A DNA stretch of 64,000 bases, taken from Thermoanaerobaculia bacterium. Its GTDB lineage: Bacteria; Acidobacteriota; Thermoanaerobaculia; Gp7-AA8. Positions 30,954 through 52,802 of the stretch are shown piece after piece (within the stretch, counting starts at the first letter, position 1; each line of letters begins with the position of its first letter). The stretch covers positions 25,440 through 89,439 of the forward strand of contig DASPHZ010000030.1 of the NCBI GenBank assembly GCA_035629395.1, in the 5' to 3' direction. Position numbers and translations under genes: made by a program. The notes under the pieces were generated by a model that ran no database searches, had not been told where the DNA came from, and was given only the letters and a program-made list of their open reading frames with translations.

Positions 30954-32339
<1,386 letters not shown>

Positions 32340-35216: not shown

Positions 35217-38200
35217 ATGAACGTCTCCGATCCCGCAGATCCGCTGTTGCCGGCTCCTCGCCGAGGACGGCGGAGGACTGCTCGGGAGCGGCAGCGCAAA
35301 GGCCCGATGTTCGGCTGCATCAAGGGCCTCATCTGGGTCTTCGGCGTCGGCTTTCTCGTGCTCCTCATCGGCATCGGCACGGGCTGGTTTCTCCTCGGCT
35401 CGACGAACTTCGCCGATTACGTCCGCAAGCGCATCGAGACCACACTCGAAACCCGTCTCGGACGTGAAGTCACGATCGGAAAAGTGATCTTCGTCCGCAC
35501 GCGCCCGCAGAAGATCATCCTCCAGAATCTGCGCATCGCGAACGCGCCCGGCGGTGCGGCGCCGCAGTTCGCACTCGTGCGCGAAGTCGAGCTCACCGGC
35601 GGCATCCAGTCGTTCTGGGGACGCGCGGTGCAGATCGATCGCATCGACATCCGCGATCCGCAGGTGTGGTTCGAGCTCCTTCCGAACGGTGAGCACAACT
35701 TCCCGAAGTGGAAGACGGGGCCGAAGCGCCGCTTCGAGATCGTGCGCGTCGACTTCCGTCATCTCTTCATCCGCGGCGGCGCGTTCAGCTTCAACGATCG
35801 CAAACACGAGATCGTCGCGGTCGCGCAGAAGATCGCTTCAGACATCACCGTCACTCGCGCCGAGGGGTTGTACGCGGGCCTCATGACCAGCCCGAACGTG
35901 CGCGTGAGCATCCAGGACTACCAGCCGTTCGACGTCACGATGCGCGGCGGCTTCCGCTACACGCCGGGCGTGCTCGCGCTGCAATCGATCGCGCTCGAAG
36001 GCCGCGGCATCCAGGCCTTCCTCACCGGCAAGCTCGATCCGCTCACCGAAGCCGTGTACGACCTCGGACTGCGGGCGCGCCTCGACCTCCCGCGCGTGAA
36101 AGAGATCTTCGCGGTCGAGCCCGTGCTCGAAGGGACGATCGCGCTCGACACGCGCCTCAAAGGAAAGGCCGGCGACTTTACGCTCGCGGGGGGCTGGACG
36201 GCGCCGAAGCTCGTCGCCGACGCGTACGAGCTCGCGAACGCGCGCGGCACGTTGAGCGTTACCGCCGACAACCTCACCATGGACGTGCAGCGCGCCGAAT
36301 ACGGCGGCGGCACGATCGGCGCGAACTACGTCCTCGCAAAGTACGCCGAGCCGTATCCGATGCGCGTCGATCTGCGCTACTACGGCATCTCCATCGAACA
36401 GCTCTTCAGCGACTGGGGCGTCGAAGGGACGGGCCTGCGCGCCGCGGCGACGGGCAATCTCGAGTACCGCTGGAACAAAGAGAAGATCCTCGAAGGCGCC
36501 GGCGAAGGCACCGCGCGGCTGGCGAAGAACGCGGTGGCGTTCTCGAATGCGCGCTACCCGATCGGCGTCACCGGCTCCACGGACTTTGCGCTGAACAACG
36601 GCGTCGTCACGTTCCGCCGCGCGGAGCTCGACACCGACGCGTCGCACATCAGCCTCACCGGCAACCTGAAGATCGAGGACGTCGTCACGGACCTGCGCAT
36701 GGCGATCCGCAGCACCGACTTTGCGGAGCTCGATCGCCTCGCGTTCAACTTCGCGCAATCCGCGGGCAAGAACGATTTCGAGCTGCTCGGATTCGGCGGC
36801 GCGGGCACGATCACCGGCACCGTCAAAGGTCCGATCGAAACGCCGCAGGTCGTCGCTCAGGTGAACGGCTCGCAGGTGCGCTACAGCGAAGTGCTCCTCG
36901 GCGACGCCGACATCGCGCTGCGCTACGACGGCAATCGTTCCACGCTCACGTTCGATCGCGCGATTTTCGTCGACGCCGGCGGACGCCTCACGCTCACCGG
37001 CACGATCGAGTTCCCCGATCGCGGACCCGGTCCCGTGTTCGACATCGCCGTCGAAGCGAACGGCTATCCCGCGCAGCGCGCGATCGACGCGGTCGGACTC
37101 GATCTGAAGATCGGACCGGGCCTGGCGACGGGACGGATGGTCGTCGCCGGCACACCGGAGCAGGGACGCGCGACGTTCGCGGGACTCACCGTCCGCCGCA
37201 ACGACGCCACGCTCGCACTCAACGGCACCATCAACTGGCTGCCGGGCGAAGGCAACGTCGCGTTCGACCTCGACATCGCCGCGACGAACTTCCCCGTGGC
37301 CGACATCGCCGCGTTCCTCGACTTTGCGGACATCCCCATCACGGGCGATCTCACCGGCACGCTGAAGATCGCGGGCCGCAAGGAATCGCTCGAAGGCTCC
37401 GGACGCGTGACCATCGCGCGCGGCGCGGTGATGGGTGAGCCGGTCGATCTCGCGTCGGCGGACATCGTCTTCAGCGAGGGACGCATGCGTGCGACGAATG
37501 TGCTCGTGCGCGCGGCGGCGGGCGAGGTCCGCGGCGAAGCGGAGATCGATCTCGCGAACGAGCGTTTCAGCTACACGATCTCCTCGGCCGCGCTCGATCT
37601 GTCGCGCCTGCAGTTGCTGCAGGGCATGCAGGACCTCTTCGGCGGACGACTCGTGCTCCGCTCGACCGGCGCCGGCACGTTCGAACAGCCGGAGCTCGTG
37701 ATCGAAGCGACGCTGGAAGAAGGGACGCTGCGCGGACTGACGCTGCCCGCGGGCTCCGCGCCGCCGTCGCTCTATCTCGCCATCCGCAACGGTCGCCTGA
37801 TCATCCGCGGCTCCGTCGCGGACATCGTCTCCATCGAAGGCGAAGGGCTCGTCGGCGAGAACCTCGCGGTCGACGGCAACGTGCGCATCGTCATCGCCGA
37901 CATCGCGGGCGCCATGGCCATGGCGCCCGCAACCGCTTCGTTCCCCGCATCCGGCAACATGACGATCGACGTGCGCCTCGGCGGCAGGCTCACGCCGATC
38001 GAAGCGCTCGTCGCCGAAGTCACCGCACCCGTCTTCAACCTTCGCTTTGCCGATCACGAGCTCACGCCCGCGGAGCCGCTGCGCATCTCGCTGCGCAACG
38101 GACGGCTGTCATTCGACTCTTTCGTCGTGCGCCGTCCCGACTCCGAGTTCGCCGTCACCGGCTTCGCGGAGATCACCGGCAACAAACAACTCGACGTCGA

Positions 38201-41200
38201 CGTGCGCGGACGCGCGAACGCCGCGCTCGTGCAGCTCTTCGCGCCCGATATCCGCGCCGAGGGATACGCGAATCTCTCGATCGGCGTGGATGGGACTTTG
38301 AGCGCGCCGCGCGTCCTCGGATCCGCGGAGCTCGTCGACGCGCAGGTGAAGTTCGCGGGATTCCCGCAACTGATCGACGAGATCAACGGCACGCTGCAAT
38401 TCCGCGGCGACCGCATCGAGATCGAATCGGTGCGGGCAACCCTCGGCGGCGGCACCGTCGTCGCGGGCGGCGCGATCGCGCTCAACGGCACGACCCCGCG
38501 CAGCGCGCGCATCACCCTGCAGGGCAACGACGTCGCGTTGCGTTACTACGAAGGGCTCACGCTCGAAGGCAACTTCACGCTGCTGCTCACGGGCGACATG
38601 GATCGCGGCCTGCTGCAGGGCGACATCGACGTCACCCGCGCGCGCTACTTCCGCGACTTCGACATCCAGCAGGCGCTGCTCAACGTCCTCCTCGCGCGCA
38701 ACCGCGTGACGCCGGTGAGCGCGGCCACGTGGCAGGAGCGCGTCGGCCTGCGCCTGCATCTCTCCGCGCCGGGCACGCTCGCGGTCGAGAACAACATCGC
38801 AGACGTCACCGGCAGCGCGGAGCTCGACGTGAACGGCACGATCGCGGCGCCGGTGATCATCGGCGAGGTCACGCTCGACGAAGGCGGCACCGTCACGATC
38901 CAGAACGTCGACTACCGCGTCGCGCGCGGCACCATCGCGTTCCAGAATCCGTTCCGCATCGATCCCTTCTTCGACGTCACCATCGAAGGCACCGTCTCCG
39001 GCTTCGGGTCGTCGGAGACCGAAGGCGGCCCATACGAAGTGAGCGTGAATCTCACCGGTACGCTCGATCGCCTCACGCCGACGGTCACGAGCGATCCTCC
39101 CGCCAGCGACATCACGCTCTTCTCCATCCTCGGCTTCGGCGCACTCGGAAGCCGCCAGCCCGGACAGCAGGCGAGCGGCGTCGGGTTGCTCGGCCAGTCG
39201 CTGCTCTACCAGAGCCTCAGCTCCTTCATCGGCTCGACGGTCTTCCCGTTCGTCGACTCGTTCGCGTACGACCCGGGCACGCTCGACGCGAGCACCGGCG
39301 CGGGCCCGCGCGTAACGTTTGAAAAGCGGCTCTCGAATCGCGTGCGCTTCCTCGTCGTCTACAACCTCGAAGACCAGCGCAGCCGTCAGGTCATCGAGTG
39401 GCTCGTCAATCCGACGTGGACGCTGCAGCTCACGCGCGACGAGGAAGACGAGTACCGCCTCGACGCGCGCTTCCGCCGCCGCTACGAAGCGCACTGGCAG
39501 TGGGGCGACGACGATCGCGCCACGAACATCGCCACGTCGTCGAGTGTAGGGACAGGCGCGGTGCCCGTCGCCACACCGGCTCCGGCATTGACGCTCGTCA
39601 ACACGCGCGCGGCCGACGACCGCCCCATCGCGCGCATCGATTTCCGCGCCGACGCCGGATTCGACACGAACGCGGTCGCGCAGGAAGTGACGCTCGCGCC
39701 GGGCGAAGTGGTGACCATCCGCGAGCTGCAGTCGTCGATCAAGAATCTCTTCGCCACCGGCAACTTCCGCGACGTACGCGTCGACTCCACGCCCGGACCG
39801 GACGGCGTCGTCCTCACGTTCTCGCTCTTCCTGCATTACCGCATCGGCGCCATCGAAGTCGCGGGCGTCGAACGCGGCGACCGCACGCGCGCGCAGCGCG
39901 AGCTCACCGTGCGCGCGGGCGAAGTGCTCTCCCTCGACGACGTCGACGACAGTGCGTCCGCCATCGAAGAGACGCTGCAACAGCACGGCTATCTCGAGGC
40001 GGTCGTCGATCCCGAGACGAACTTCGACCGCGCGCGCAACGTGGCCGACGTCACGTTCCACGTCACGCCGGGACCGCAGGCCACGATCGCGAGCGTGATC
40101 CTCGAAGGCAACACCGCGCCGTTCACGACGGACGACCTCCTCGAGCGCATGAGCCGCCGCGCGGGACGCACGTTCAGCCTCCCCGACGCGCGCGAGGATG
40201 CGGACCGCATCCAGAACTTCCTCGTGCGCCGCAATCACCGCCGCGCCGACGTCGACTTCCTCGGCCACACCTACGACGAAGCGACGCACGGCGTCACGTT
40301 GCGCTATCGCGTGCAGGTGGGACCCACCGTGCAGGTCGCGGTGAGCGGCGTACCGCGAAGCATGGTCCGCCGCTGGCTGCCGTTCGCGCGCAACCAGGAG
40401 TACAGCGAAGACGTCGTCGAGCGCGCCGCGGACCGCATCACCGAGGGGCTGCAGGAGCGCGGCTACTTCCTCGCGACCGTCGACACCGAGAGCTCGCTCG
40501 AGAACAACGTCTGGACGACGACGTTCCACGTCGATCCGGGTGTGCAGTACCGCCTGCAGGAAGTCCGCTTCAGCGGCAACGCGAAGATCGAGGACGGCGA
40601 GCTCGAAGGCGTCGTGGCCACCAATCCGCGCGGCGGCTTCCGCGGCTTCGTCGCGCGCCTCTTCCGCCGCCCGACCGGCGTCACGCGCACGCAGCTCTCC
40701 GACGACCGCGACTCCGTCGAATCGTTCTATCGCCTGCAGGGCTTCTCGCAGGCGACCGTCGGCGAGCCGATCGCGCAGACGCGCGCCGACCAGACGCTCG
40801 TCGTCGACTTCCCGATCACGGAAGGGCCGCAAACGCTGCTCGCCTCGGTCCGTCTCGAAGGGGTGCAACCGGATCACGTCGACGAGATGCCGAACCTGCA
40901 ACTGCGTCCCGGCGAGCCGCTCAATCCGCAGCTCCTCAACGAAGACGTCATCACGCTGCAGACGTTCTACGCGAACCGCGGCCATGTCGAAGTGCAGGTC
41001 TCGCCGCGCGTCGACACGACGGAGGATCAGACGACGGCGACGCTCGTTTACGTGATCGCGGAAGGGCCGCAGGTGAACGTCGACGAGATCACCGTGCGCG
41101 GCAACACGTACACCGATCGCGACGTCGTGCTGCGCCGGTCGGGCCTGGAGGCGGGACGTCCGTTCAGCTACACGTCGATGCTCGAAGCGCAGCGCGAGCT

Positions 41201-42428
41201 CTATCGCCTCGGCATCTTCCAGCGCGTGGAGGTGCAGCCGACGCAGACCGACACGACGGTCGGCGATCGCGACGTCGTCATCCAGGTCGAGGAAGGCCGC
41301 AACCTCACCGTCACCGGTTCGGTCGGTATCCGCGCCGAGCGCGGCACCAACGTCGGCAGCGGCCTCGAAGTGCACGAGCGGATCGCGGCCGCGGTCGCGC
41401 ATCGCAACCTCTTCGGCACCGGCCGCTACCTCGGCCTCGAAGGCGTCTACAGCCGCGAAGAGCAGGAAGCGTTCATCACGTACCGCGAACCGTTCGTCGG
41501 CCGCTGGAACGTGCCCGTGCAGTTGCAGATCTTCCAGTCCGACGACACGACGCGCGGCGCGACCCAGATCCTGCAGAAGGGACTGTCGGTCGAGGCCTCA
41601 CGCGTGGCGCGCCTGCAGACGCGCTGGTCGCTGCGGTACGAGTACAAGATCTCGACGTGCGAAGGCGGCGAGCTGTGCGACGACATCAAGGACGGCGTGA
41701 TCGTCGAGAACCTCGACCGCTCGCTGCTCGACATCCAGATCTCCTCGATCGCACCGACGTTCTTCTGGGACCGCCGCGACGACATCATCGATCCGCACCG
41801 CGGCTTCTTCGCCAGCGCCTCGGTCGAGTACGCGTTCCCGCTGTTCTCCGCCTCGGCCGGATTCACGAAGGAGTTTGTGCAGGGCGCGTATTACATCCCG
41901 CTCACCGAGCGCACGGTGATCGCGCTGTCGGGACGGGCCGGTTTCATCCAGCGTTACGCGAAGCGCTTCGACGAAGACCTCGGACGCGACGTGCTGCGCG
42001 ACACGCCGCTGTCGGAGCGCTTCACCGCCGGCGGCGAGACGACGCATCGCGCGTTCGCGCTGGATCGCCTCGGCGATCCGTGCATGGAGAGGAAGGACGC
42101 GCCGGTCGACGAGACGTGCTCGCGCACGCTGCGCTACGACCCCGACACGGGACGCATCCAGCCGCTCGGCGGCAACGCGCTGCTGCTGTTCAACGCGGAG
42201 TACCGCTTCCCGATCTTCGGCACGCTCGGCGGCGCGGCGTTCGTCGACATCGGCAACGTCTTCCCCGACAGCACGGTGCGCTTCAACGAGCTCCGTTACG
42301 GAGGCGGCCTCGGACTGCGCTACCTCTCGCCAGTAGGTCCGCTGCGGTTCGACGTGGCGATGCCGTACCGGCGCAGATGGTACGAGGACCGCGTGCAGTT
42401 CTTCTTCTCCCTCGGATACGCGTTCTGA
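35217..42428 (+). CDS. Giant fusion protein: TamB/AsmA-like (N-terminal TM anchor through DUF490-like C-terminal region, about aa 1-1420) fused to POTRA repeats plus Omp85/BamA-TamA-type beta-barrel (about aa 1460-2403)
   Basis: Single uninterrupted ORF with coherent GC3 throughout. N-terminal TM (LIWVFGVGFLVLLIGIG) and long beta-rich AsmA/TamB-like region ending in a DUF490-like segment (...VNLTGTLDRLTPTVTSDPPASDITLFSILGFG...VTFEKRLSNRVRFLVVYNLED...WTLQLTRDEEDEYRLDARFRRRYE). Linker, POTRA-like modules (IARIDFRADAGFDTNAVAQEVTLAPGEVVTIRELQSSIKNLFATGNFRDVRVD...), and Omp85 barrel ending ...GGNALLLFNAEYRFPIFGTLGGAAFVDIGNVF...LRYLSPVGPLRFDVAMPY...FFFSLGYAF. Confidence 0.75.
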   Translation: MNVSDPADPLLPAPRRGRRRTARERQRKGPMFGCIKGLIWVFGVGFLVLLIGIGTGWFLLGSTNFADYVRKRIETTLETRLGREVTIGKVIFVRTRPQKIILQNLRIANAPGGAAPQFALVREVELTGGIQSFWGRAVQIDRIDIRDPQVWFELLPNGEHNFPKWKTGPKRRFEIVRVDFRHLFIRGGAFSFNDRKHEIVAVAQKIASDITVTRAEGLYAGLMTSPNVRVSIQDYQPFDVTMRGGFRYTPGVLALQSIALEGRGIQAFLTGKLDPLTEAVYDLGLRARLDLPRVKEIFAVEPVLEGTIALDTRLKGKAGDFTLAGGWTAPKLVADAYELANARGTLSVTADNLTMDVQRAEYGGGTIGANYVLAKYAEPYPMRVDLRYYGISIEQLFSDWGVEGTGLRAAATGNLEYRWNKEKILEGAGEGTARLAKNAVAFSNARYPIGVTGSTDFALNNGVVTFRRAELDTDASHISLTGNLKIEDVVTDLRMAIRSTDFAELDRLAFNFAQSAGKNDFELLGFGGAGTITGTVKGPIETPQVVAQVNGSQVRYSEVLLGDADIALRYDGNRSTLTFDRAIFVDAGGRLTLTGTIEFPDRGPGPVFDIAVEANGYPAQRAIDAVGLDLKIGPGLATGRMVVAGTPEQGRATFAGLTVRRNDATLALNGTINWLPGEGNVAFDLDIAATNFPVADIAAFLDFADIPITGDLTGTLKIAGRKESLEGSGRVTIARGAVMGEPVDLASADIVFSEGRMRATNVLVRAAAGEVRGEAEIDLANERFSYTISSAALDLSRLQLLQGMQDLFGGRLVLRSTGAGTFEQPELVIEATLEEGTLRGLTLPAGSAPPSLYLAIRNGRLIIRGSVADIVSIEGEGLVGENLAVDGNVRIVIADIAGAMAMAPATASFPASGNMTIDVRLGGRLTPIEALVAEVTAPVFNLRFADHELTPAEPLRISLRNGRLSFDSFVVRRPDSEFAVTGFAEITGNKQLDVDVRGRANAALVQLFAPDIRAEGYANLSIGVDGTLSAPRVLGSAELVDAQVKFAGFPQLIDEINGTLQFRGDRIEIESVRATLGGGTVVAGGAIALNGTTPRSARITLQGNDVALRYYEGLTLEGNFTLLLTGDMDRGLLQGDIDVTRARYFRDFDIQQALLNVLLARNRVTPVSAATWQERVGLRLHLSAPGTLAVENNIADVTGSAELDVNGTIAAPVIIGEVTLDEGGTVTIQNVDYRVARGTIAFQNPFRIDPFFDVTIEGTVSGFGSSETEGGPYEVSVNLTGTLDRLTPTVTSDPPASDITLFSILGFGALGSRQPGQQASGVGLLGQSLLYQSLSSFIGSTVFPFVDSFAYDPGTLDASTGAGPRVTFEKRLSNRVRFLVVYNLEDQRSRQVIEWLVNPTWTLQLTRDEEDEYRLDARFRRRYEAHWQWGDDDRATNIATSSSVGTGAVPVATPAPALTLVNTRAADDRPIARIDFRADAGFDTNAVAQEVTLAPGEVVTIRELQSSIKNLFATGNFRDVRVDSTPGPDGVVLTFSLFLHYRIGAIEVAGVERGDRTRAQRELTVRAGEVLSLDDVDDSASAIEETLQQHGYLEAVVDPETNFDRARNVADVTFHVTPGPQATIASVILEGNTAPFTTDDLLERMSRRAGRTFSLPDAREDADRIQNFLVRRNHRRADVDFLGHTYDEATHGVTLRYRVQVGPTVQVAVSGVPRSMVRRWLPFARNQEYSEDVVERAADRITEGLQERGYFLATVDTESSLENNVWTTTFHVDPGVQYRLQEVRFSGNAKIEDGELEGVVATNPRGGFRGFVARLFRRPTGVTRTQLSDDRDSVESFYRLQGFSQATVGEPIAQTRADQTLVVDFPITEGPQTLLASVRLEGVQPDHVDEMPNLQLRPGEPLNPQLLNEDVITLQTFYANRGHVEVQVSPRVDTTEDQTTATLVYVIAEGPQVNVDEITVRGNTYTDRDVVLRRSGLEAGRPFSYTSMLEAQRELYRLGIFQRVEVQPTQTDTTVGDRDVVIQVEEGRNLTVTGSVGIRAERGTNVGSGLEVHERIAAAVAHRNLFGTGRYLGLEGVYSREEQEAFITYREPFVGRWNVPVQLQIFQSDDTTRGATQILQKGLSVEASRVARLQTRWSLRYEYKISTCEGGELCDDIKDGVIVENLDRSLLDIQISSIAPTFFWDRRDDIIDPHRGFFASASVEYAFPLFSASAGFTKEFVQGAYYIPLTERTVIALSGRAGFIQRYAKRFDEDLGRDVLRDTPLSERFTAGGETTHRAFALDRLGDPCMERKDAPVDETCSRTLRYDPDTGRIQPLGGNALLLFNAEYRFPIFGTLGGAAFVDIGNVFPDSTVRFNELRYGGGLGLRYLSPVGPLRFDVAMPYRRRWYEDRVQFFFSLGYAF

Positions 42429-42448
42429 GGCGCCTGCGGTGCGGAGCT

Positions 42449-42681
42449 GGTTACTGGTGCGATGTCGGTTGCTGGCGCGTTGCTGGTTGTTGGTTGCTTG
42501 TCAGTCCGCGACGTAGCGCCCAGCCGATGCCTGATACACGCTCCAGCGCCTGCGGCGCGTTGTCCGTCGCCCGCAATGCCAAGCGTGTCGCCCAGGCGCT
42601 GCCTCACAAGCAACCAGGAACCAGCAACCAGCAACTGAAGCGGCCCGCGCGCGCAACCAGCAACGGCCGCGGAACCGCGGC
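42449..42681. repeat. Long hairpin repeat element, (GGTTGCT)n-type left arm / (AGCAACC)n right arm with about 130-nt loop, between convergent genes
   Basis: ggttactggtgcgatgtcggttgctggcgcgttgctggttgttggttgcttg ... caagcaaccaggaaccagcaaccagcaac ... gcaaccagcaacggccgcggaaccgcggcc. Confidence 0.75.
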
Positions 42682-42924
42682 CTAAAAACTCGTCTCGAGC
42701 GAATCCGCCGCGGCCTGTGCGCGCTCCTGCTCGATGCGTGCGAGGCGGGTGCGCAGCTCGGTGATCTCGTGCTGCATCTTCGTGAAGTCTTCCTTCACGG
42801 CTTCGCGCGCGATCTCCTGGAGACGCGATGTGAGCTTCCCGAGCTGATCGGACTGGAACTGCGTGAGGCGGCTCAGCGGCTCGCCGAAGACGTCTTTCAG
42901 AAGCGATTCGAAATCCTGCGCCAT
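42682..42924 (-). CDS. Small coiled-coil protein (possibly UbiK/YqiC-like), hypothetical
   Basis: MAQDFESLLKDVFGEPLSRL...ITELRTRLARIEQE; resemblance to the UbiK family is weak. Confidence 0.4.
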   Translation of the reverse strand: MAQDFESLLKDVFGEPLSRLTQFQSDQLGKLTSRLQEIAREAVKEDFTKMQHEITELRTRLARIEQERAQAAADSLETSF

Positions 42925-42958
42925 GGCGAAAAGGGTGTGCGAGAATCGGGCCCGTCCC

Positions 42959-43276
42959 ATGGAAATCCGTTCGTTCGCCGAGTTCTGGCCGCACTACGTC
43001 CGGGCCCATTCGCGGCGGCGTACGCGCGTGCTGCACGCGATCGGATCCACGCTCGCGCTTGCCGCCATCGTCGCCTCGATTTTCGTCAGCCCGTGGTTCC
43101 TCCTCGCGGCACCGCTCATCGGCTACTCGTTCGCGTGGTACGGACACTTCTTCGTCGAGCACAACAAGCCGGCGACGTTCGGCCACCCGTTCTATTCGCT
43201 GGCCGCGGATTACGTCATGGTGTGGAAGATGATCACCGGCCGCATGGGCGCCGAAGTCGCCAAACACGTGCGCTGA
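42959..43276 (+). CDS. DUF962 (Mpo1-like) membrane protein
   Basis: FAEFWPHYVRAH...YGHFFVEHNKPATFGHPFYSL is a DUF962 signature. Confidence 0.65.
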   Translation: MEIRSFAEFWPHYVRAHSRRRTRVLHAIGSTLALAAIVASIFVSPWFLLAAPLIGYSFAWYGHFFVEHNKPATFGHPFYSLAADYVMVWKMITGRMGAEVAKHVR

Positions 43277-43289
43277 TATCATCCGGCGC

Positions 43290-44063
43290 ATGGCATTTCT
43301 CGAAGGGCAGACCGGCATCGTCTTCGGCGTGGCGAACAAGCGCTCGATCGCGTGGGCGATCGCGCAGGCGCTCGCACGCGAGGGGATGCGCCTCGCGTTC
43401 ACGTATCAGGGCGAGCGCCTGAAAGACAACGTCGCCGACCTCGCGAATGCGATCCCGAACTCGATCGTCCTTCCCTGCGACGTCACCATCGATGCGGAGA
43501 TCGACGCCGTCTACGAGTCCGTCGAGAAAGAGTTCGGCAGACTCGACGCCGTGCTGCACTCGGTGGCGTTCGCGCCGAAGGAAGAGCTCGAGCGCGATTT
43601 CATCCACACCTCGCGCGACGGTTTCAAGCTCGCACACGACATCTCCGCGTACTCCCTCGTGGCGGTGACGCGCGGCGCGGTGCCGCTGCTCGAGAAAAAC
43701 GGCGGCGGCTCCGTGCTCACGCTCACGTATCACGGCGCGGTGAAAGCGGTCGAAGGCTACAACGTCATGGGCGTCGCGAAGGCCTCGCTCGAATCGACCA
43801 TGCGCTATCTCGCCGCGAACCTCGGGCCGAAGAACATCCGCGTGAATGCGCTCTCCGCGGGTCCGGTGAACACGCTCGCCGCGCGCGGCATCAAAGGCTT
43901 CACGACGATGCTCAAGCATCACGCGGAGAAAGCGCCGCTGCGCCGCAACGTGGAGCTCGACGAAGTCGGCAACGCCGGCATGTTCCTCCTCTCGCCATGG
44001 GCCTCGGGGATCACCGGCGAAGTGACGTACGTCGACTGCGGCTACAACATCGTCGGGTTGTAG
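43290..44063 (+). CDS. fabI: Enoyl-[acyl-carrier-protein] reductase (NADH), FabI
   Basis: GVANKRSIAW...Y..(6)K catalytic dyad region, typical FabI length. Confidence 0.9.
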   Translation: MAFLEGQTGIVFGVANKRSIAWAIAQALAREGMRLAFTYQGERLKDNVADLANAIPNSIVLPCDVTIDAEIDAVYESVEKEFGRLDAVLHSVAFAPKEELERDFIHTSRDGFKLAHDISAYSLVAVTRGAVPLLEKNGGGSVLTLTYHGAVKAVEGYNVMGVAKASLESTMRYLAANLGPKNIRVNALSAGPVNTLAARGIKGFTTMLKHHAEKAPLRRNVELDEVGNAGMFLLSPWASGITGEVTYVDCGYNIVGL

Positions 44064-44386
44064 TCAGCGGAACGGCTCGAGCCGCTCCGCGCAGCGTCTC
44101 ATCCCGCTTTCGGGCCCTGCTTCCGCGCCGGGTCGTCCGGCGGAAATTCGATGTCCGTCCGGATCCCCGTGCGGTCCGGCTTGCGCGTGCCGGGGAAGCC
44201 GCTGGGACGCCCCGCCGACTCACCGTTGCTGCTGTGTCCCGGGGCGCCGCCGTCCCAGAATCCCTTGTTCTTTACATGCTCTCGTGGATTTCCCGCCATG
44301 CTTTCACCTCAACCGTAACTTACTGAATTTCCAGCAGCTTTGGCACCATCATCGCAACTACAAATAACCAAGAAGGAGGATCTTGA

Positions 44387-44674
44387 ATGGTTGACAACGT
44401 GAATCCTACCAGTCAGTTCCACCCGTACACGCCGGAGACTTCGGTCCCGCAGACGGGGAATACCAACGTCGGCGGTGGCAGCGGTCTCTCGGGCATCCTG
44501 AGCAAAGTCGGCCTCGATCAGAGCAAGATCGGTGCGCTGGGCGGCTCGCTGAAGAACATGGATCTGTCGAAGGCGCGCGGCATGGCGCAGAACAACGGCG
44601 GCCTCGTTCTCGGCGGTCTCGCGGCGCTCGCCATCGGCGTCGGCCTGATGCGCAGACGCGGCATGTCGAGGTAA
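44387..44674 (+). CDS. Small Gly-rich protein with C-terminal hydrophobic anchor plus basic tail; own AT-rich promoter region, strong RBS and terminator
   Basis: AAGGAGGA 8 nt upstream of ATG; unusually AT-rich 44290-44386; C-terminus GGLVLGGLAALAIGVGLMRRRGMSR. Confidence 0.5.
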   Translation: MVDNVNPTSQFHPYTPETSVPQTGNTNVGGGSGLSGILSKVGLDQSKIGALGGSLKNMDLSKARGMAQNNGGLVLGGLAALAIGVGLMRRRGMSR

Positions 44675-44689
44675 CGTTTTTTCGTTCGA

Positions 44690-44720
44690 GGTGCGGCCGT
44701 TCCCGGCCGCACCTTTCTTT
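44690..44720 (+). terminator. Rho-independent terminator
   Basis: ggtgcggccg-ttcc-cggccgcacc followed by tttcttt. Confidence 0.8.
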
Positions 44721-45151
44721 CAGTTCGAGTGCATCGTGAAATCGATGTACACCGTGCCGTCGTCCTCGACGCGGCCGATCACCGTCACGGTCGACGTCAC
44801 CTTCACCACCCCTTTGCTCTCCCCTTCGCCGACGAGGCGAAAGTTCTTGCCGGGCTTCATGAGCTGGCCGCGCATGATGCCGTGCTCATCCTCGACCGTC
44901 AGCGTGGGCATCGACGCCGGACCCAGCGTCGCAATCGAGTACGCCGAGCGTTCCGCCGCGTTTTCCGCGAGCGTCCAGGCGATGACGCGGGCGCGGAATC
45001 GCCGCGCTTCCGCGAGATCGCGTGAAGCGTCGACGAGCAGCAACTGGATCATGCCGAAATAGAGCACGGCCAGGATGATCGCGATCGCCAGCGCGAATCC
45101 GCGCTGACCGTTAGTCCGTCGCGCGCGGCTGATAAATCTGATCGATCGCAA
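44720..45151 (-). CDS. Pseudopilin-like protein with degenerate prepilin leader
   Basis: N-terminus ...NGQRGFALAIAIILAVLYFGMIQ, prepilin-like but lacking Glu+5. Confidence 0.4.
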   Translation of the reverse strand: MRSIRFISRARRTNGQRGFALAIAIILAVLYFGMIQLLLVDASRDLAEARRFRARVIAWTLAENAAERSAYSIATLGPASMPTLTVEDEHGIMRGQLMKPGKNFRLVGEGESKGVVKVTSTVTVIGRVEDDGTVYIDFTMHSN

Positions 45152-45617
45152 TTCGTCCTTCCCCGTCGCGCGCGAGAATGCGCGTCGCCCAGCCGCTCGT
45201 CGAGCCGGTCTTCAAGGCACTGATCTCGACATTCGCCAGATCCTTCGGCAACCCTCGCGCGACCCACTCGCGCTTTTTCCCCACGTCGTACGAGATGCGG
45301 CGCGCTTCGCCCGGCTCGCGAAAGTCCCACACGATGACGTGCACTTCGCCGTTCGGCTGAACCGACTCCACGATCAGCACCTGCTGCGACGACGTGTAGA
45401 CGTCGTGCGTGCGCTCGTACGGGGCCCTGCTGTTCGCGTCGAGCACGTCGCGACGCAGACGCGCCAGCACCGCCATCAGCGATGGATGTTTGTGCATGCT
45501 CACCGGCAGACGCTTGTCCCAGCCGCGCATCTCCGCGGTGAGGATGAAGAAGACGGCGAGGAACAGCGCGAAGACGGCCATCGCGACCATCACTTCCATC
45601 AACGTGTAACCGCGCAT
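45111..45617 (-). CDS. Prepilin-type N-terminal cleavage/methylation domain protein (type II secretion / type IV pilus minor pseudopilin)
   Basis: MRGYTLMEVMVAMAVFALFL (G|YTLMEV motif). Start at ATG 45617; the ORF-track upstream extension is rejected. Confidence 0.7.
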   Translation of the reverse strand: MRGYTLMEVMVAMAVFALFLAVFFILTAEMRGWDKRLPVSMHKHPSLMAVLARLRRDVLDANSRAPYERTHDVYTSSQQVLIVESVQPNGEVHVIVWDFREPGEARRISYDVGKKREWVARGLPKDLANVEISALKTGSTSGWATRILARDGEGRIAIDQIYQPRATD

Positions 45618-45628
45618 GCGGCGGCGCG

Positions 45629-46021
45629 TCACCACAGGTTCGTGCCTCCCGTGTCGACGCGCACGAGCGCGAGCGTGGCCTCGCGCTTTCCTTCGTGCCA
45701 GCGCACCGTCAGCGTCACGTGCTTGACGCCGGGCTCTTTGTGATCGACGCGCACCGCCGTTCCGTACGGCGCGAGCGGCGCGAGGATTTCCGTGTCGGTG
45801 ATGAAGCTCTTCTTGCTCGTGTCGAGCTGATCGAACTCGATGCGGCGCCGGAACTCTGCTTCGTTCGCCAGCGCCTGATAGGCGAGCACGAGCTCCGACG
45901 CCTGGCGCAGACGATTGTTGCGCTCGAGAAACGCGAGCAGCGAAGTCGTCAGCACGATCGTGAGGATCAGAAACGCGGCGAGCACTTCCGCCAGCGAGAA
46001 TCCCCGTTCGGAGCGGCGCAT
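45629..46021 (-). CDS. Prepilin-type N-terminal cleavage/methylation domain protein (pseudopilin)
   Basis: MRRSERGFSLAEVLAAFLILTIVL (G|FSLAEV). Confidence 0.7.
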   Translation of the reverse strand: MRRSERGFSLAEVLAAFLILTIVLTTSLLAFLERNNRLRQASELVLAYQALANEAEFRRRIEFDQLDTSKKSFITDTEILAPLAPYGTAVRVDHKEPGVKHVTLTVRWHEGKREATLALVRVDTGGTNLW

Positions 46022-46056
46022 GGCGGACCATTGTAGTTTGCTAGACTCCGCGCCCG

Positions 46057-47481
46057 ATGAAGCTCCGTTTCGCCCCTTCCCCCACCGGATTCCTGCACGT
46101 CGGAGGCGCGCGCACCGCCATCTTCAATCTGCTGCACGCGCGCCGCTACGGCGGGACGATGCTGCTGCGCATCGAGGACACGGACGTCGAGCGCTCGAAG
46201 CAGCATCACGCGGAGCAGATCGTCAGCTCGCTGCAGTGGCTCGGCGTCGAATGGGACGAGGGTCCGATCTATCAGAGCGATCGGCTGGAACGGTATCGCG
46301 ACCGCGCCGAGGAGCTCGTCGCGAGCGGCAAGGCATATCGCTGCTATTGCACGGTCGAAGAATTGGAAGCGGATCGCACGGCCGCGGAAGCGCGCGGCGA
46401 TTCGTATCGCTACTCGGGCCGCTGCCGCAAACGCGCGGAGAGCGGCCAGGAGCAGCCCGACGACGTGCCGCACGTCATCCGCTGCAAGGTCATGCCGGGG
46501 CCGATCGAGTTCCACGATCTCATCCGCGGCGACGTGCAGTTCGAAGGGGAGCTGATCGACGACTTCGTCCTCATTCGCTCCGACGGCAATCCGACGTATC
46601 ACCTTTCCGTCGTCGTCGACGACGTCGACATGGAGATCACGCACGTCGCGCGCGGCGACGATCACCTCTCGAACACGCCGAAGCACATCGTGCTCTTCCG
46701 CGCGTTCGACGCACCGATCCCCGTTTTCGCGCACCTGCCGCTGATCCTCGGCAGCGATCGGAAGCGGCTGTCGAAGCGCAGCGGCGCCACGTCCGCCGAG
46801 GAGTATCGCGACATGGGCATCGTCCCCGCCGCGCTCTTCAACTTCCTCACGCTCCTCGGCTGGAATCCCGGCGGCGATCGCGAGCTGATCACGCACGACG
46901 AAGCGGTCCAGCTCTTCGATCTCGGCGACGTCAACAAGGCGCCGGCGGTGTTCGATCCGGAGAAGCTGCTCTGGATGAACGGTCAGTACCTGATGCGCAT
47001 GACCGTCGACGAGATCCATCCGCACCTCGTGCCGTTCCTCGGCGAGAACGTGCGGCCGGTCGACGAACTGCGTTCCGTCATTGAACTGAACAAAACGCGC
47101 GCGCGCACGCTGCGCGAGCTCGCGGAGCTGATGACGCCGTTCTTCGCCGACGACGACTCGATCGAGTACGACGCCGACGCGGTGAAGAAACACGTCAAGG
47201 GTGACGAGCTCGCGTCGCGCCTCACCGAACTGCATGACGTGCTCGCGAGCACCGAGCCGTTCGACGTCACCACCACCGAGGCCGCGCTTCGCGCGCTCGC
47301 CGAATCGCGCGGCGTGTCGGCGGCGAAGCTGATTCACCCGCTGCGCCTCGCGTTGACCGGCCGCGGTGCTTCGCCGCCGATCTTCGACGTGGCCGTAGTG
47401 CTCGGCAAAGAAAAAACACTACGGCGCCTGCAACGGCTGATCGCGCGTTTGCCGGAGCTCGCTCAGGCCGCTTCGGCCTGA
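46057..47481 (+). CDS. gltX: Glutamate--tRNA ligase
   Basis: MKLRFAPSPTGFLHVGGARTAIFN (HIGH region), KLSKR-type KMSKS motif (LSKRSGA). Confidence 0.95.
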   Translation: MKLRFAPSPTGFLHVGGARTAIFNLLHARRYGGTMLLRIEDTDVERSKQHHAEQIVSSLQWLGVEWDEGPIYQSDRLERYRDRAEELVASGKAYRCYCTVEELEADRTAAEARGDSYRYSGRCRKRAESGQEQPDDVPHVIRCKVMPGPIEFHDLIRGDVQFEGELIDDFVLIRSDGNPTYHLSVVVDDVDMEITHVARGDDHLSNTPKHIVLFRAFDAPIPVFAHLPLILGSDRKRLSKRSGATSAEEYRDMGIVPAALFNFLTLLGWNPGGDRELITHDEAVQLFDLGDVNKAPAVFDPEKLLWMNGQYLMRMTVDEIHPHLVPFLGENVRPVDELRSVIELNKTRARTLRELAELMTPFFADDDSIEYDADAVKKHVKGDELASRLTELHDVLASTEPFDVTTTEAALRALAESRGVSAAKLIHPLRLALTGRGASPPIFDVAVVLGKEKTLRRLQRLIARLPELAQAASA

Positions 47482-48221
47482 TTCGCGCGCATGCGGTCCA
47501 ACGCGGTCGCGCCGAGGAGCCACAGCGCGCAGATCGCGATCATGCCGCCCATGATCCAGAGGCTGTAACGGCCGTCCGCGGAGTACGGCTCGGTGGCGAG
47601 GTGGATGGCCTCGCTGTTCGGCAGCAGCTCCGCTTCGGAGAATTCGTGAATGGCGTAGAACACGATCTGGACCGTGAACAGGAGCAGGAACAATCCCGTC
47701 ACCTGGAAGAAGCGTTTGACGTTGATGCGGTGGCCGAAGTGCGCCCACAACCACGACATCGCCGCGGCGGCCGCGAGTCCGAGCGCGCAGCCGAGCCAGA
47801 AGCGGCCCTGGCGCACCTGAATCAGCATCAGCGCGGTCTCCATCCCTTCGCGCGTGATCATCAGCAGCGTGAAGCCGAAAACACCGAGCCACGCCCACAC
47901 CGGTGAGCCTTTGGAGGCTTGCATCTCGAGGCGCGTTTCCATCTCGCGCTTCATCGTCGGCGCGACGCGCCAGATGTGGATGACGAAGCTCGCCACGAGG
48001 ACCGCGGCGACGAGGGCGAGGATGCCTTCCCACAGCGGCTGATTGACGCGCTGCAGCCACCAGCCGAGGGCGGCGCTGGCGATGACGGAAACGCCGATGC
48101 CCCACCACACGGCGGGACGCAGCCACGAGCGGCCGGTCTTGCGCAGGTACGCAAAGATGATGGCCACGGTGAGAAAGGCTTCGAAGCCTTCGCGGAAAAC
48201 GATGATCAGAGCCTGGAGCAT
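47463..48221 (-). CDS. FTR1-family high-affinity iron permease (EfeU-like)
   Basis: Two REGxE motifs (REGFEA, REGMET) in TM helices. Confidence 0.85.
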   Translation of the reverse strand: MLQALIIVFREGFEAFLTVAIIFAYLRKTGRSWLRPAVWWGIGVSVIASAALGWWLQRVNQPLWEGILALVAAVLVASFVIHIWRVAPTMKREMETRLEMQASKGSPVWAWLGVFGFTLLMITREGMETALMLIQVRQGRFWLGCALGLAAAAAMSWLWAHFGHRINVKRFFQVTGLFLLLFTVQIVFYAIHEFSEAELLPNSEAIHLATEPYSADGRYSLWIMGGMIAICALWLLGATALDRMRANQAEAA

Positions 48222-48278
48222 GTGGGTTCCTCGTGCACGGCGTCATTCTGCGGCGCGCAGACACCGAAGGATCTCGAG

Positions 48279-48297
48279 CGACGCAACGGTTGCGTCG
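48279..48297. promoter_or_regulatory. Perfect 9-1-9 palindrome CGACGCAAC-G-GTTGCGTCG in fur-FTR1 spacer
   Basis: Read directly; function unknown. Confidence 0.3.
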
Positions 48298-48360
48298 AGC
48301 GAGACCGTTCGCCGTCTGCGCGGCTCAGGGTGACGGGAGCGTGCCTGGTGTGGGATGCGC

Positions 48361-48861
48361 TCATTTCCTCAGTTTCGTGGGCTGGATCATCTTCACGCGA
48401 TCCGGCGCGTCGGGTGTTTGACCCTTGCGGCGGCAGGAGTCGCATACGCCGAGGATCTGGAGGTTGTGGAACGTCGGGGTGAACTTTTTTTTCTCGCAGA
48501 TGGCGATCTGCAGGCGCTCGAGCTGTTCGTCGTGAAACTCGATGACGTTGCCGCAGGTGGTGCAGATGAGATGGTCGTGGTGCGAGTTCCCGCTGACGTG
48601 CTCGTAGTGATAGTGGTCCTCGCCGAGGTGGACGCGGCGGACCATGTTGGACTTTACGAGCAGTTCGAGCGTGCGGTAGACCGTCGCGCGCGAGATCTTG
48701 ACGCTCTTCTCCTTCATCTTTCCGAGGAGCTCGTCCGCCTCGAAGTGGTAATGCGTGGAGAAGATCTCGCGCACGAGCGCAATGCGCTCGGACGTGAGCT
48801 TGAGCCCCTGCTGCTGCAGGTAGTCCTGGAACCGTGTGATCTCGCGTTCGACGCTGGGCAT
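48361..48861 (-). CDS. fur: Ferric uptake regulator family transcriptional regulator
   Basis: RATVYRTLELL HTH, HHDHLIC...C and CxxC metal sites. Confidence 0.9.
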   Translation of the reverse strand: MPSVEREITRFQDYLQQQGLKLTSERIALVREIFSTHYHFEADELLGKMKEKSVKISRATVYRTLELLVKSNMVRRVHLGEDHYHYEHVSGNSHHDHLICTTCGNVIEFHDEQLERLQIAICEKKKFTPTFHNLQILGVCDSCRRKGQTPDAPDRVKMIQPTKLRK

Positions 48862-48874
48862 GAGAGGGTGAGAG

Positions 48875-48890
48875 TTGAGACGCCGTCTCA
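48875..48890. promoter_or_regulatory. Palindrome TTGAGACG-C-CGTCTCA 14-30 nt upstream of fur start codon; candidate autoregulatory operator
   Basis: Same core as the bfd upstream palindrome (2616-2632). Confidence 0.45.
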
Positions 48891-48929
48891 GTTGGCGAGA
48901 GTGTAGCGGGGGGAGGGGGGTGGGTCAAG

Positions 48930-49056
48930 GGAGCTGTTGAGCTGTTGAGCTGTTGAGCCGCTGAGCTGTTGAGCCGTTGAGCTGTTGAGTCGCTGAGCGG
49001 AGGGGCCGGGGGAGCTCAATGGCTCAATAGCTCAACGGCTCAATTAGCGAACAGCT
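48930..49056. repeat. Second copy of (CTGTTGAG)n / (CTCAATAG)n hairpin repeat element, same orientation as copy at 4937-5082
   Basis: ggagctgttgagctgttgagctgttgagccgctgagctgttgagccgttgagctgttgagtcgctgagcgg-aggggccgggggag-ctcaatggctcaatagctcaacggctcaattagcgaacagctccc. Overlaps the 3' end/stop of the GyrI-like gene. Confidence 0.85.
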
Positions 49057-49523
49057 CCCACCACCGGCAGGTACACATCCGTCACCATCTCCTCCTCGCG
49101 CACGTTCGGGCCGACGTTCACGTAGTGGAAGAAGATGGGAAAGTCGGCGAGGCGCTCGCCGCTTTGCGGGAGCCAGACTTCGGCGAGATAGCGCGCGGTC
49201 GTGTTGTTTTCGCGGGAGCCGAGGTGGCGGGCTTTGGCGCAGCGCAGGGCGGGGATGCGTTTGTTGATCACGCCTTGCGGATTCGGCGGGACGTCGGCGT
49301 CGACGGCGATCGCGAAATCGACGCGATGCTCCTCGGGCGCGGTTTTCGCGGGATCGGTGTAGTGGATGCCGTACGTCTTGTAGCGATCGGGCGGATAGCC
49401 GTTCTGGATGCGCCACTGGATCAGGCGGCGCGCCGTCTCGTGCTCGAGCTCCGGCGCGCCGCGATGTTCCACGGCGGCGATCTTCGTTTCGGGAAACGCG
49501 ACGATTTCGACGGCGATCGTCAT
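49044..49523 (-). CDS. GyrI-like small-molecule-binding domain protein
   Basis: About 159 aa; start ATG overlaps upstream gene stop (TGATG). Confidence 0.55.
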   Translation of the reverse strand: MTIAVEIVAFPETKIAAVEHRGAPELEHETARRLIQWRIQNGYPPDRYKTYGIHYTDPAKTAPEEHRVDFAIAVDADVPPNPQGVINKRIPALRCAKARHLGSRENNTTARYLAEVWLPQSGERLADFPIFFHYVNVGPNVREEEMVTDVYLPVVGAVR

Positions 49524-51931: not shown

Positions 51932-51954
51932 GGCGGCGAACTATGAAAGAAGGT

Positions 51955-52066
51955 TGCCAGATGGTTGCTGGTGGTTGGTTGCTGGTTGGTAGTTACTGGT
52001 TGCTCGGGATTTGCCCTGAGCCGAAAGCTCACGAGCAACCAGGAACCAGCAACGAGTAACCAGCAA
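51955..52066. repeat. Hairpin repeat element, (GGTTGCT)n left arm / (AGCAACC)n right arm
   Basis: ggttgccagatggttgctggtggttggttgctggttggtagttactggttgctcg-ggatttgccctgagccgaaagctcacg-agcaaccaggaaccagcaacgagtaaccagcaac. Confidence 0.8.
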
Positions 52067-52783
52067 CTACTTCCGCCGCTTCACCAACTGCTTCACCTCA
52101 TCGTTCCCGATCGCGCTCTGCGCGGAAATGATGACCGCCGCGGTGCCGTCGCGGAAGGCGGGGATGGTGCAGCGCACGGTCGCCGTTCCGTCCGCCGCGG
52201 TCTTGCCGCGGAAGATGACGCGCGGCGGTTCCACGGTCGAGATCACTTTCACCTCGATCGCGGCCGCGGGGATCGGTGCCTGGGAGAGGCTCTTGCGGGC
52301 GGCGACGCGCATTTCGATCGGGGCGCCGGCGAAGAAGTCGACCACGTTGAGGAGCGCGAGCTCGAGATGCTCGCTCTCGGCTTCCGAGGCGAGGTAGTCG
52401 ATGATGACCTGATCGAGGGTCTTCTCCTCGTCGATCGCCACCGGTGCCGCCGCGGCTTCCTCGAACACCACGCCCGAGTCCTGCGTGAGCGTCGGCATCG
52501 ACGGGCGCGGCGAGGCTTTCGTCGTATCGGCGGGCTGATCGAAGCGGCCGCGTTTGATGGCCGCGATCATGGTCCGGTGCTGCTGCTCCATGAGGCCGCC
52601 GATCCATTTGTCGTCGACGCCCGTCTTGAGCTGCTCCGCGTACGAAGTCTTCTTCGACGCGAGGATCTCGCCACCCACGTACACGAGCGACTCGATGTAG
52701 GGATTCCCTACACCTTTGTCCTCGGTCTGCACGTGGTAGACCTTCTCGTTGTGCTTGATGTCTGTATTGAAGCCGGTGATCAC
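52067..52783 (-). CDS. Hypothetical protein
   Basis: Good GC3 bias; MITGFNTDIKHNEKVYHVQTEDKGVGNPYIESLVYVGGEIL N-terminus, no motif recognised. Confidence 0.55.
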   Translation of the reverse strand: MITGFNTDIKHNEKVYHVQTEDKGVGNPYIESLVYVGGEILASKKTSYAEQLKTGVDDKWIGGLMEQQHRTMIAAIKRGRFDQPADTTKASPRPSMPTLTQDSGVVFEEAAAAPVAIDEEKTLDQVIIDYLASEAESEHLELALLNVVDFFAGAPIEMRVAARKSLSQAPIPAAAIEVKVISTVEPPRVIFRGKTAADGTATVRCTIPAFRDGTAAVIISAQSAIGNDEVKQLVKRRK

Positions 52784-52802
52784 GGGGTGAGCGAATGGTA
52801 TC

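Follow-up and report, generated by a model that had tools for sequence, protein, structure and literature searches.

We analysed a 64,000-nt stretch of the genome of an uncultured soil Thermoanaerobaculia bacterium (Acidobacteriota; assembly GCA_035629395.1, contig DASPHZ010000030.1, forward-strand positions 25,440 to 89,439), here called the window, around a large hairpin at 42430-42681 that lies behind a giant TamB-Omp85 gene. The window carries nine elements of this kind, six built from heptamers and three from octamers, in which a tandem array of short units is paired with an inverted array of the complementary unit. Considering their architecture and their behaviour in relatives, we lean towards the view that they are fast-turnover, largely non-adaptive palindromic simple-sequence repeats, made of convergent 7- or 8-nt arrays around a variable centre. 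The elements being palindromic, both strands read alike, each with a G/T-rich 5' arm. They are the following:

E1, 4935-5082: octamer element, (GAGCTGTT)n / (AGCTCAAY)n, overlapping the stop codons of both convergent genes (4944-4946 and 5082-5084); the outer arms of 24 nt are 100% complementary, and the right arm is longer by 4 units.
E2, 8935-9004: left arm of three GGTTGTC units (8935-8962) and a decayed, degenerate right arm, with the hairpin at 8943-9003; it occupies the entire 70-nt spacer from the stop of an FHA/zinc-ribbon gene (9005) to the start of an ABC2-membrane gene (8934), both on the minus strand.
E3, 11547-11629: (GGTTGTC)n / (GACAACC)n hairpin occupying the spacer between the convergent stops 11541-11543 (plus) and 11630-11632 (minus).
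E4, 30938-31028: heptamer hairpin with the unit (A/C)GAGGGC / GCCCTC(T/G), starting 12 nt past the stop of a rhodanese gene (30925), with an enolase gene (31059) downstream; it matches E8 in inverted orientation.
E5, 42430-42681: degenerate GGTTGCT-type 5' arm (42446-42498) and AGCAACC-type 3' arm (42609-42665) around a nested core of ~108 nt (42499-42606) that is itself folded, with a small GC hairpin at 42666-42683; it takes up the whole spacer from the stop of the TamB-Omp85 gene (42426-42428) to that of a convergent 80-aa gene (42682-42684).
E6, 48929-49060: octamer element of the E1 family, overlapping the 3' end and stop (49044) of a GyrI-like gene; its other end adjoins a -35-like TTGACC (48928-48923) upstream of fur.
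E7, 51948-52069: (GGTTGCT)n / (AGCAACC)n hairpin starting at the stop of a 238-aa gene (52067-52069, minus), with a co-directional phosphodiesterase/sulfatase-TPR gene (start 51931) downstream.
E8, 52803-52884: heptamer hairpin GAGGGCY / TCGGCCC, starting at the stop of a transglutaminase-like gene (52885-52887, minus); the sense strand reads TAAAGGG CCGAGGG CAGAGGG...
E9, 62300-62740: compound element after the stop of a TPR gene (62297), with outer arms of the GAGCTGTT type and an interior of 2.6 tandem copies of a 136-nt unit, each with a hairpin whose arms are of the GAGCTGTA/GAGCGATA/AAGCTATA type.

Four of these loci (E2, E3, E5 and E7) had been named in an earlier sequence-only reading as tandem-heptamer hairpins with reverse-complement arms, and direct reading of the DNA bears this out, the 5' arm being a tandem heptamer array and the 3' arm a complementary one. 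Against dinucleotide shuffles, the folds of these loci reached z-scores of -3.4 (42430-42700, with a minimum free energy of -136.8 kcal/mol), -6.5 (11540-11635, plus strand; -6.3 on the minus strand), -5.9 (51945-52075) and -3.1 (8925-9010). E4 and E8 are added here to the four, and the octamer 'CTGTTGAG' loci E1, E6 and E9 share this architecture and are members of one class with them. The idea of one shared architecture with interchangeable units therefore holds for all nine window elements, and it extends to the many unit types found in the spacers of relatives.

The unit arrays at all nine loci were defined with the Tandem Repeats Finder (TRF) program and by direct reading. In addition, a detector that demands at least 3 copies of a 7-9-nt unit and the reverse complement of the array within 300 nt detected, in the window, 11 arrays with a period of 7-9 nt, and for 8 of them an inverted partner, while 20 dinucleotide-preserving shuffles of the window gave 0-3 arrays each and no paired ones. 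The first 300 nt of E9 are identical in L204, an independent assembly; as independent assemblies show the same elements, these are not assembly artefacts. Stems measure 25-60 bp and loops 12 to ~110 nt. No Rfam 15 family matched at or above its gathering score anywhere in the window. Arms with G-tracts (at least 4 runs of at least 3 G) are restricted to the GAGGGC-type elements E4 and E8, the GGTTGCT, GGTTGTC and GAGCTGTT arms being without them, so that a G-quadruplex reading is possible for E4 and E8 only. The E5 core was also considered as a separate dispersed element, a reading that we reject as no second copy was found.

To place the window among its relatives we used a GltX-anchored metagenome scan, which returned 80 syntenic loci (73-87% identity, 1.0 Mb) by a selection blind to repeats; the best named matches to the GltX of the window are metagenome-assembled genomes of Thermoanaerobaculia (Acidobacteriota), at 82-89% identity. 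Tandem arrays in these loci were paired or not according to their period:

Period 5: 340 arrays, 8 with an inverted partner.
Period 6: 282 arrays, 0 with an inverted partner.
Period 7: 140 arrays, 107 with an inverted partner (76%).
Period 8: 27 arrays, 20 with an inverted partner (74%).
Period 9: 7 arrays, 6 with an inverted partner.

Arrays of period 7-8 are thus mostly paired and those of period 5-6 are paired at 0-2%, showing that the formation of the former is linked to the formation of a palindrome. Under strict criteria we counted 85 hairpins in 1.03 Mb; as these criteria detect no more than 5 of the 9 elements in the window, the density in relatives is underestimated. The frequency is about one element per 7 kb here; relatives have at least one per 12 kb.

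A second rule concerns polarity. The 5' arm contains more G than C in 74 hairpins against 8 with the opposite bias (p = 1.6e-14; 85 counted including the window, 82 biased), and the same holds by unit family, with a G-rich 5' arm in 40 against 4 (p = 1.7e-8; 44 clearly biased of 48 families). The mean composition of the 5' arm is 36.5% G, 18.1% C, 25.5% T and 19.9% A. All 9 window elements have the G-rich array in front on either strand; in both strands the G/T-rich arm leads 5' to 3' into the centre.

The position of the elements relative to genes was examined by a spacer census over 76.7 kb of the ENA metagenome contig ERZ27257310:k141_872186 (126,863 bp), which includes the window, using gene calls and Pfam domains:

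Tandem spacers: 47 in total, 26 of at least 20 nt, 5 with an element.
Convergent spacers: 13 in total, 10 of at least 20 nt, 4 with an element.
Divergent spacers: 12 in total, 12 of at least 20 nt, 0 with an element.

About 1 in 5 spacers after a gene end is occupied in this genome. The window elements each start at or a few bases from a stop codon and most fill the entire spacer; in relatives, 59 of the 78 stop-facing edges fall between -10 and +12 nt from the stop codon (median 2.5 nt). Frequently the stop codon itself is part of the first unit, for example in TAGTTGC TGGTTGC or in TGAGTTGC x5, and the stop triplet resembles the in-phase triplets of the array (1.18 vs 0.74 matches), which we read as the array running up to the stop codon. 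E7 follows the same pattern. Its locus, taken to begin at 51955, had been described as promoter-side, but the element begins right at the stop codon of the 238-aa gene, which lies upstream in the same direction, and so also stands at a gene 3' end, and none of the 12 divergent spacers of the census is occupied.

One exception was found among relatives, 15 of which carry a hairpin (from at least 6 unit families) in the spacer that separates gltX from a divergent pilin-like gene. These hairpins are inserted between two -10-like boxes standing back to back (minus CTACAAT, plus TAGACT/TAATAT), that is at the sole unconstrained position there, which fits better with elements that fill free DNA than with terminators. 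In the window this spacer (46019-46059) contains only 35 nt between the divergent starts of the pilin-like (N_methyl) gene and gltX, and the boxes CTACAAT (minus) and TAGACT (plus) each lie 8-9 nt from their own ATG; this spacing suggests that the two transcripts may be leaderless or nearly so.

Two other explanations of the link with stop codons were considered and set aside. Units selected to give stops in all frames, 7 and 8 being no multiples of 3, are rejected, as a stop triplet is present in 15 of 48 units against 12.8 +/- 2.4 expected from composition (P = 0.24) and 26 of 85 5' arms close no reading frame. TAG is more frequent among the adjacent stops (29/59 vs 16/60, Fisher p = 0.014), a modest enrichment obtained on orthologous loci that are not independent.

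The elements do not behave as canonical terminators either, a reading that we reject for want of U-tracts. The flanks read at the window elements contained no T-tract following them, and a canonical terminator scan of 40001-60000 did not report E5-E8; its only match inside an element was a weak one of 7 pairs within the left arm of E5 (42471-42487). The one convincing site of the scan is a 12-bp GC-rich stem at 44688-44715, with T-rich runs on either side (44675-44719), between convergent small genes, and this terminator could be bidirectional. The other convergent spacers, those without elements, contain ordinary hairpins.

The elements turn over rapidly between relatives. The spacer orthologous to that of E7 contains at least 10 unrelated unit types (GGTTGCT, GGGGAGT, AGCTCTT, GGCAGAT, GGCTCAGA, AGTTCTT, CGCGGTCA, GACGAGT, GTGTTAG and CAGTTGC), always with the stop codon directly on one side and a conserved downstream motif directly on the other, and it is hairpin-free and 32-82 nt long in 6 relatives. 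The E8 spacer lacks a hairpin and is 20-46 nt long in 11 of 13 distinct relatives, and is filled by a different, non-periodic palindrome of ~150 nt in the remaining 2; in the two relatives closest to the window (92-93% GltX identity) it measures 22 nt. At the E5 spacer, L136 has the same unit around another core, L173 has another unit, L209 and L210 have a non-periodic GC-rich palindrome, and three loci are reduced to 2-15 nt. The presence/absence polymorphism that had been proposed as a check does exist between relatives. The boundaries between filled and empty alleles are sharp, right after TAG, TGA or TAA, even at a non-stop TAG in the spacer upstream of gltX, and three filled/empty comparisons revealed no target-site duplication.

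Changes at a finer scale are also visible. Strain L203, whose flanking 617-aa TPR protein is identical, differs in E9 by one 8-nt unit, consistent, like the 4 additional units in one arm of E1, with the slippage that had been suggested for these hairpins, and further by a 13-nt duplication, a 3-nt deletion and several substitutions, all within 275 nt. Six orthologous GAATGTT hairpins have conserved arms, with double changes in 3 of 38 pairs, but their loops show no relation to one another in sequence or length. One spacer has different alleles in L139 and L152, two near-identical genomes; considered as a de novo swap of the unit, this case is really the replacement of a whole spacer allele, most simply by recombination. 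As to the loops, the 9-mer TCTCGCAAG is common to those of E1 (4984-4998) and E3 (11579-11600), which belong to the octamer and heptamer families, respectively, and hairpins of L173 and L139 have TCTCGCG-type motifs in their loops. The shared 9-mer may be due to chance (rough estimate p ~0.02) or reflect a preferred loop sequence.

Close relatives contain at least 48 unit families, and the window alone has 4-5. Within it, GGTTGCT is used at E5 and E7, GGTTGTC at E2 and E3, and GAGGGCN at E4 and E8, and GAGCTGTT recurs at E1, E6 and E9 with the same arm asymmetry (CTGTT left, CAAT right). Over all loci, a unit family was shared by 16 of 89 hairpin pairs within a locus (18%) against 179 of 3481 pairs between loci (5.1%), a value reached by 0 of 2000 permutations (p < 0.0005). 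As unit families are shared across the spacers of one genome, some intragenomic spread exists. One example comes from L209, where a hairpin at another locus can be aligned along both arms to the inner hairpin of E9. Copies have only their arms in common, with different loops and unit numbers, and similarity between loci is confined to the periodic units. We found neither a conserved non-repeat core nor a general GTAG motif, GTAG being sporadic at the boundaries, and the Pfam-annotated genes called over the 76.7 kb contain no transposase, reverse-transcriptase or HUH domain.

A second palindromic family, non-periodic and with the core GTCATYCTGMGGCGCGCAG..CCGAAGGATCTCGA, is also present in this genome. 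It is found in the window at 48241-48335, with 47-nt arms, between FTR1 and fur, again 22 kb away in the contig extension (~70911-70945; L202 ~20468-20502), and as three ~98-nt tandem copies after fabI in L210 (6988-7283). This family looks REP- (repetitive extragenic palindrome) or MITE-like (miniature inverted-repeat transposable element). A search of 89 related loci for the motif GTCATCCYGAGS gave 79 matches, spread over 31 of them.

The RNA folds of the two strands are not equally stable. In 7 of 9 elements, among them the four that lie between genes of the minus strand, the plus-strand fold is the more stable one, and it has more G.U where the opposite strand has A.C; the stretches compared include 4930-5086, 8935-9004, 48925-49064, 51945-52070 and 52795-52890. 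Selection for wobble pairs in the sense-strand RNA is not supported, considering that the plus-strand fold is favoured irrespective of how the neighbouring genes are oriented; E1, E6 and E9 owe their common G.U asymmetry to descent. A replication-strand cause was also considered, for which the GC skew of the window, being near zero, is uninformative.

The sequence-only reading had proposed that such hairpins are unusual and could be lineage-specific. Of its interpretation, the common architecture and the slippage stand; lineage specificity does not, nor does the 51955 locus as a promoter-type site. In a scan of 185,579 species genomes with (GGTTGYY)3, the matches listed include cyanobacteria, Bacteroidota, Acidobacteriota, Gemmatimonadaceae, Lysobacterales, Planctomycetota, Chloroflexota, Streptomyces and others, and the same architecture is present in Acidobacteriota, Lysobacterales, Planctomycetota, Bacteroidota, Chloroflexota, cyanobacteria and others. 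Figures come from 120 loci among the matches listed, in which 120 of 364 period-7-9 arrays have an inverted partner, including units unlike the query. Among the matches listed from other phyla, CAACC arrays come after GGTTG arrays 20 times and before them once. Considering that the class occurs in several phyla and that earlier descriptions exist for Geobacter metallireducens (PMC2700814) and Xanthomonas (PMC4692102), the claim of lineage specificity is wrong, and the elements described here are new families of a known kind of repeat.

In G. metallireducens, Aklujkar et al. (2009, PMC2700814) described octa- and heptanucleotide sites paired on opposite strands at a variable distance, in three classes: GTTGCTYN x4 (class 1, 24 pairs), TCTCCGTS[Y] x3 (class 2, 21 pairs) and MTYCTGA x5 (class 3, 8 pairs). 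They proposed the binding of an IHF/HU 'global regulator' and noted that insertion sequence (IS) elements insert at a fixed distance from such sites. These repeats share with ours the tandem 7-9-nt units, the several classes per genome, the intergenic location and the restriction to one species of the genus, and class 1 resembles GGTTGCT, but with a period of 8 there against 7 here. They differ in having only 3-5 units per arm and in belonging to a deltaproteobacterium, and polarity, stop adjacency and turnover were not analysed. In Xanthomonas campestris and X. axonopodis, Rehm et al. (2015, PMC4692102) described 186 GGGAATC arrays, 70 pairs of them convergent, which are 89-93% intergenic, at a mean of 28 nt from the upstream open reading frame (ORF) and 160 nt from the next one, mostly transcribed, variable in length and sequence between sister species, and for which no gene-regulatory role could be identified. 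Here the likeness lies in the heptamers, about 3/4 of them in inverted pairs, in the G-rich array coming first on each strand and in their rarity between divergent genes; the difference is a single G-tract unit able to form G-quadruplexes, while here many families coexist, most of them without G-tracts. The units GGTTGCT, GGTTGTC, GAGGGCN and GAGCTGTT differ from the families described in both groups.

Other known systems are less close. The cyanobacterial STRR (short tandemly repeated repetitive) heptamers and the TAACTGA repeats of Beggiatoaceae are also intergenic tandem heptamers with several unit families per genome, but they are described chiefly as direct arrays; the TAACTGA repeats lie just upstream of start codons, in 169 direct sets against 1 inverted (PMC4679880). 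Inverted pairs do occur in cyanobacterial loci among the matches listed (L003, L050, L082, L113 and L120). The REP/BIME/REPIN palindromes share with our elements the many extragenic copies at gene ends and in convergent spacers, the families within a genome and the role of IS targets. REPs are fixed, conserved imperfect palindromes of ~20-40 nt with a 5' GTAG, linked to REP-associated tyrosine transposases (RAYTs), whereas the elements here have periodic arms of variable length, units that differ between loci and no conserved core, and no RAYT domain appears among the genes called over the 76.7 kb. MITEs have target-site duplications and near-identical full-length copies; our elements showed no duplication at the three spacers compared, and their copies differ in unit number and loop. 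Intrinsic terminators are also GC-rich hairpins just past the stop codon, possibly bidirectional between convergent genes, but their stems are of 5-14 bp and their loops of 3-8 nt with a U-tract, against 25-60 bp, 12-110 nt and none here. In a few E. coli terminators the C-rich arm tends to come first, which is the opposite polarity.

How could such elements arise and persist? In the process that we favour, whole units would be gained and lost in the arms through slipped-strand mispairing, and the complementarity of the arms would be kept by template switching or conversion within the palindrome, perhaps together with selection for pairing. Such copying between the arms would account for the rarity of unpaired 7-8-nt arrays. 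The centre of the palindrome, as a hotspot of break and repair, would be freely remodelled. The elements would persist only in unconstrained DNA, which in compact genomes means a few bases distal to a stop codon, growing until they abut or slightly invade the gene end, and their boundaries would be set by purifying selection on the stop codon and on the downstream signals. Unit families would then reach other spacers of the same genome by some route. If transcribed, either strand would give a very stable hairpin at the end of the message, with a G/U-rich 5' arm and a C/A-rich 3' arm, which may block read-through or exonucleases or attract RNase III. The hairpin is probably a dispensable bidirectional 3'-end barrier or insulator, and this effect on transcript ends is probably incidental, considering the overlong stems without a U-tract, the sense folds that are not favoured and the absence of the elements from many orthologous sites.

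In this account the architecture, period specificity, polarity, stop adjacency, turnover, unit indels, mirrored arm changes and sharing of families are observed, and the mechanism, the non-adaptive status and any effect on RNA are inferred. Several observations weigh against it. The strict polarity (74/82 hairpins, 40/44 families) is not predicted by plain slippage or template switching and points to an extra constraint or a specific mechanism; the rule is too strong to be incidental. The sharing of families within a genome needs a route of dispersal, and neither target-site duplications in the filled/empty comparisons nor mobility domains among the genes called on the 76.7 kb were found. The ordinary hairpins of the element-free convergent spacers indicate a terminator-like niche, which fits with selection, and the compensatory changes in the arms are also expected from selection on RNA structure.

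It is possible, although we find it rather improbable, that the elements are selected as factor-independent, often bidirectional terminators or as stabilisers of mRNA 3' ends; only the RNA hairpin would then matter, so that the sequence would be free to turn over and repeats would be an easy way to long stems. The start of the elements at or a few nt from stop codons and their distribution over the spacers of at least 20 nt (4/10 convergent, 5/26 tandem and 0/12 divergent) are in agreement with this, as are the ordinary hairpins of the remaining convergent spacers, the scarcity of canonical U-tract terminators (one convincing site in the 20 kb scanned), the position of E6 between a gene end and the promoter-like site of fur, the paired positions that change together (3/38 pairs) and the transcription of most of the equivalent Xanthomonas repeats (PMC4692102). 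However, the same spacers are empty in many relatives, down to 2-46 nt, the stems of 25-60 bp and the loops of up to ~110 nt without a U-tract are unlike terminators, the sense RNA is less stable than the antisense in 4 of 5 co-directional cases, 15 relatives have an element between the divergent promoters upstream of gltX, and the Xanthomonas authors found no gene-regulatory role for the equivalent repeats (PMC4692102). The hairpins could instead be non-autonomous MITE-like or REP/REPIN-like elements, moved whole by a transposase such as a RAYT or an IS200/IS605-type HUH enzyme, acting in trans on single-stranded hairpins, and diversified by slippage after transposition, a scenario that we hold to be quite unlikely. 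Unit families recur at several spacers per genome, E1, E6 and E9 have their arm asymmetry in common, the inner hairpin of E9 aligned over both arms with one from another locus, the boundaries after TAG, TGA or TAA are sharp, including at the non-stop TAG upstream of gltX, and IS insertions lie at a fixed distance from the G. metallireducens sites (PMC2700814). Against it stand the three filled/empty comparisons without target-site duplication, the copies that share only their arms, the absence of a conserved non-repeat core and of a general GTAG motif, and the called genes of the 76.7 kb, devoid of transposase or HUH domains; moreover, constraint by the stop codon and by the back-to-back -10 boxes explains the sharp boundaries equally well.

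The regular 7-8-nt spacing of a motif with dyad symmetry and the few unit families per genome are reminiscent of arrays of binding sites, either for a nucleoid-associated factor of the IHF/HU type or a global regulator, or for a single-strand-binding protein reading ~7 nt per monomer, such as a cold-shock protein. Binding has been proposed for related repeats (PMC2700814 and PMC4679880). Both forms seem very improbable to us, considering that the at least 48 unit families of close relatives, with 4-5 in the window, would require many co-evolving proteins, that the same spacers lack elements in relatives and that a 7-nt period places consecutive sites on different faces of B-DNA.

Returning to slippage and template switching, which we prefer, the polarity is the feature that would call for something more specific. 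It would fit with a central break at whose two 3' ends G-rich repeats are added or selected, for example after cleavage by SbcCD at the centre and with Chi-like protection from RecBCD/AddAB. Candidate causes are that G/T-rich 3' ends at a central break would offer RecBCD/AddAB correctly oriented Chi-like sequences, that self-pairing G/T-rich strands would prime by folding back, or that C-rich RNA, a Rho loading site, would be avoided where exposed. Of the 5 copies of the E. coli Chi octamer GCTGGTGG in the window, 2 lie in the 5' arms of E7 (51967-51974) and E9 (62301-62308); both arm copies point toward the centre of the palindrome, and the E9 copy is missing in strain L203. The nearly constant pairing of period-7-8 arrays, the polarity and the placement right after stop codons could be taken together to mean that the 7-8-nt palindromes are a distinct class across several phyla, made by one specific mechanism and not by generic slippage, a reading we consider unlikely.

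Apart from the repeats, the gene upstream of E5 (35307-42428, plus strand) encodes 2373 aa with AsmA/TamB-like domains (DUF748, TamB), POTRA repeats and an Omp85 barrel, that is TamB and a TamA/BamA-like part in one polypeptide, conserved in L125, L126 and L209.

These elements have practical consequences for genome analysis. The short-read assemblies of two near-identical strains, L203 (to 2965) and L204 (to 2504), stop inside the equivalent of E9 (window 62298-62605), showing that repeat hairpins fragment metagenome assemblies. The elements also create spurious ORFs, and as stop codons lie inside the arrays, they change gene ends. The pairing of periods 7-8 as opposed to 5-6, the G-rich 5' arm on both strands, the distance of about 2 nt between edge and stop codon, the hypervariable loops with co-varying arms and the genome-specific unit families are not stated in PMC2700814 or PMC4692102. 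These rules make an old curiosity, the excess of heptanucleotide repeats in bacteria, testable in terms of palindrome dynamics, break repair and the formation of transcript ends. If the more specific mechanism were true, the hairpins would be the trace of a dedicated process, of break repair or driven by an enzyme, by which intergenic DNA is shaped in many bacteria.

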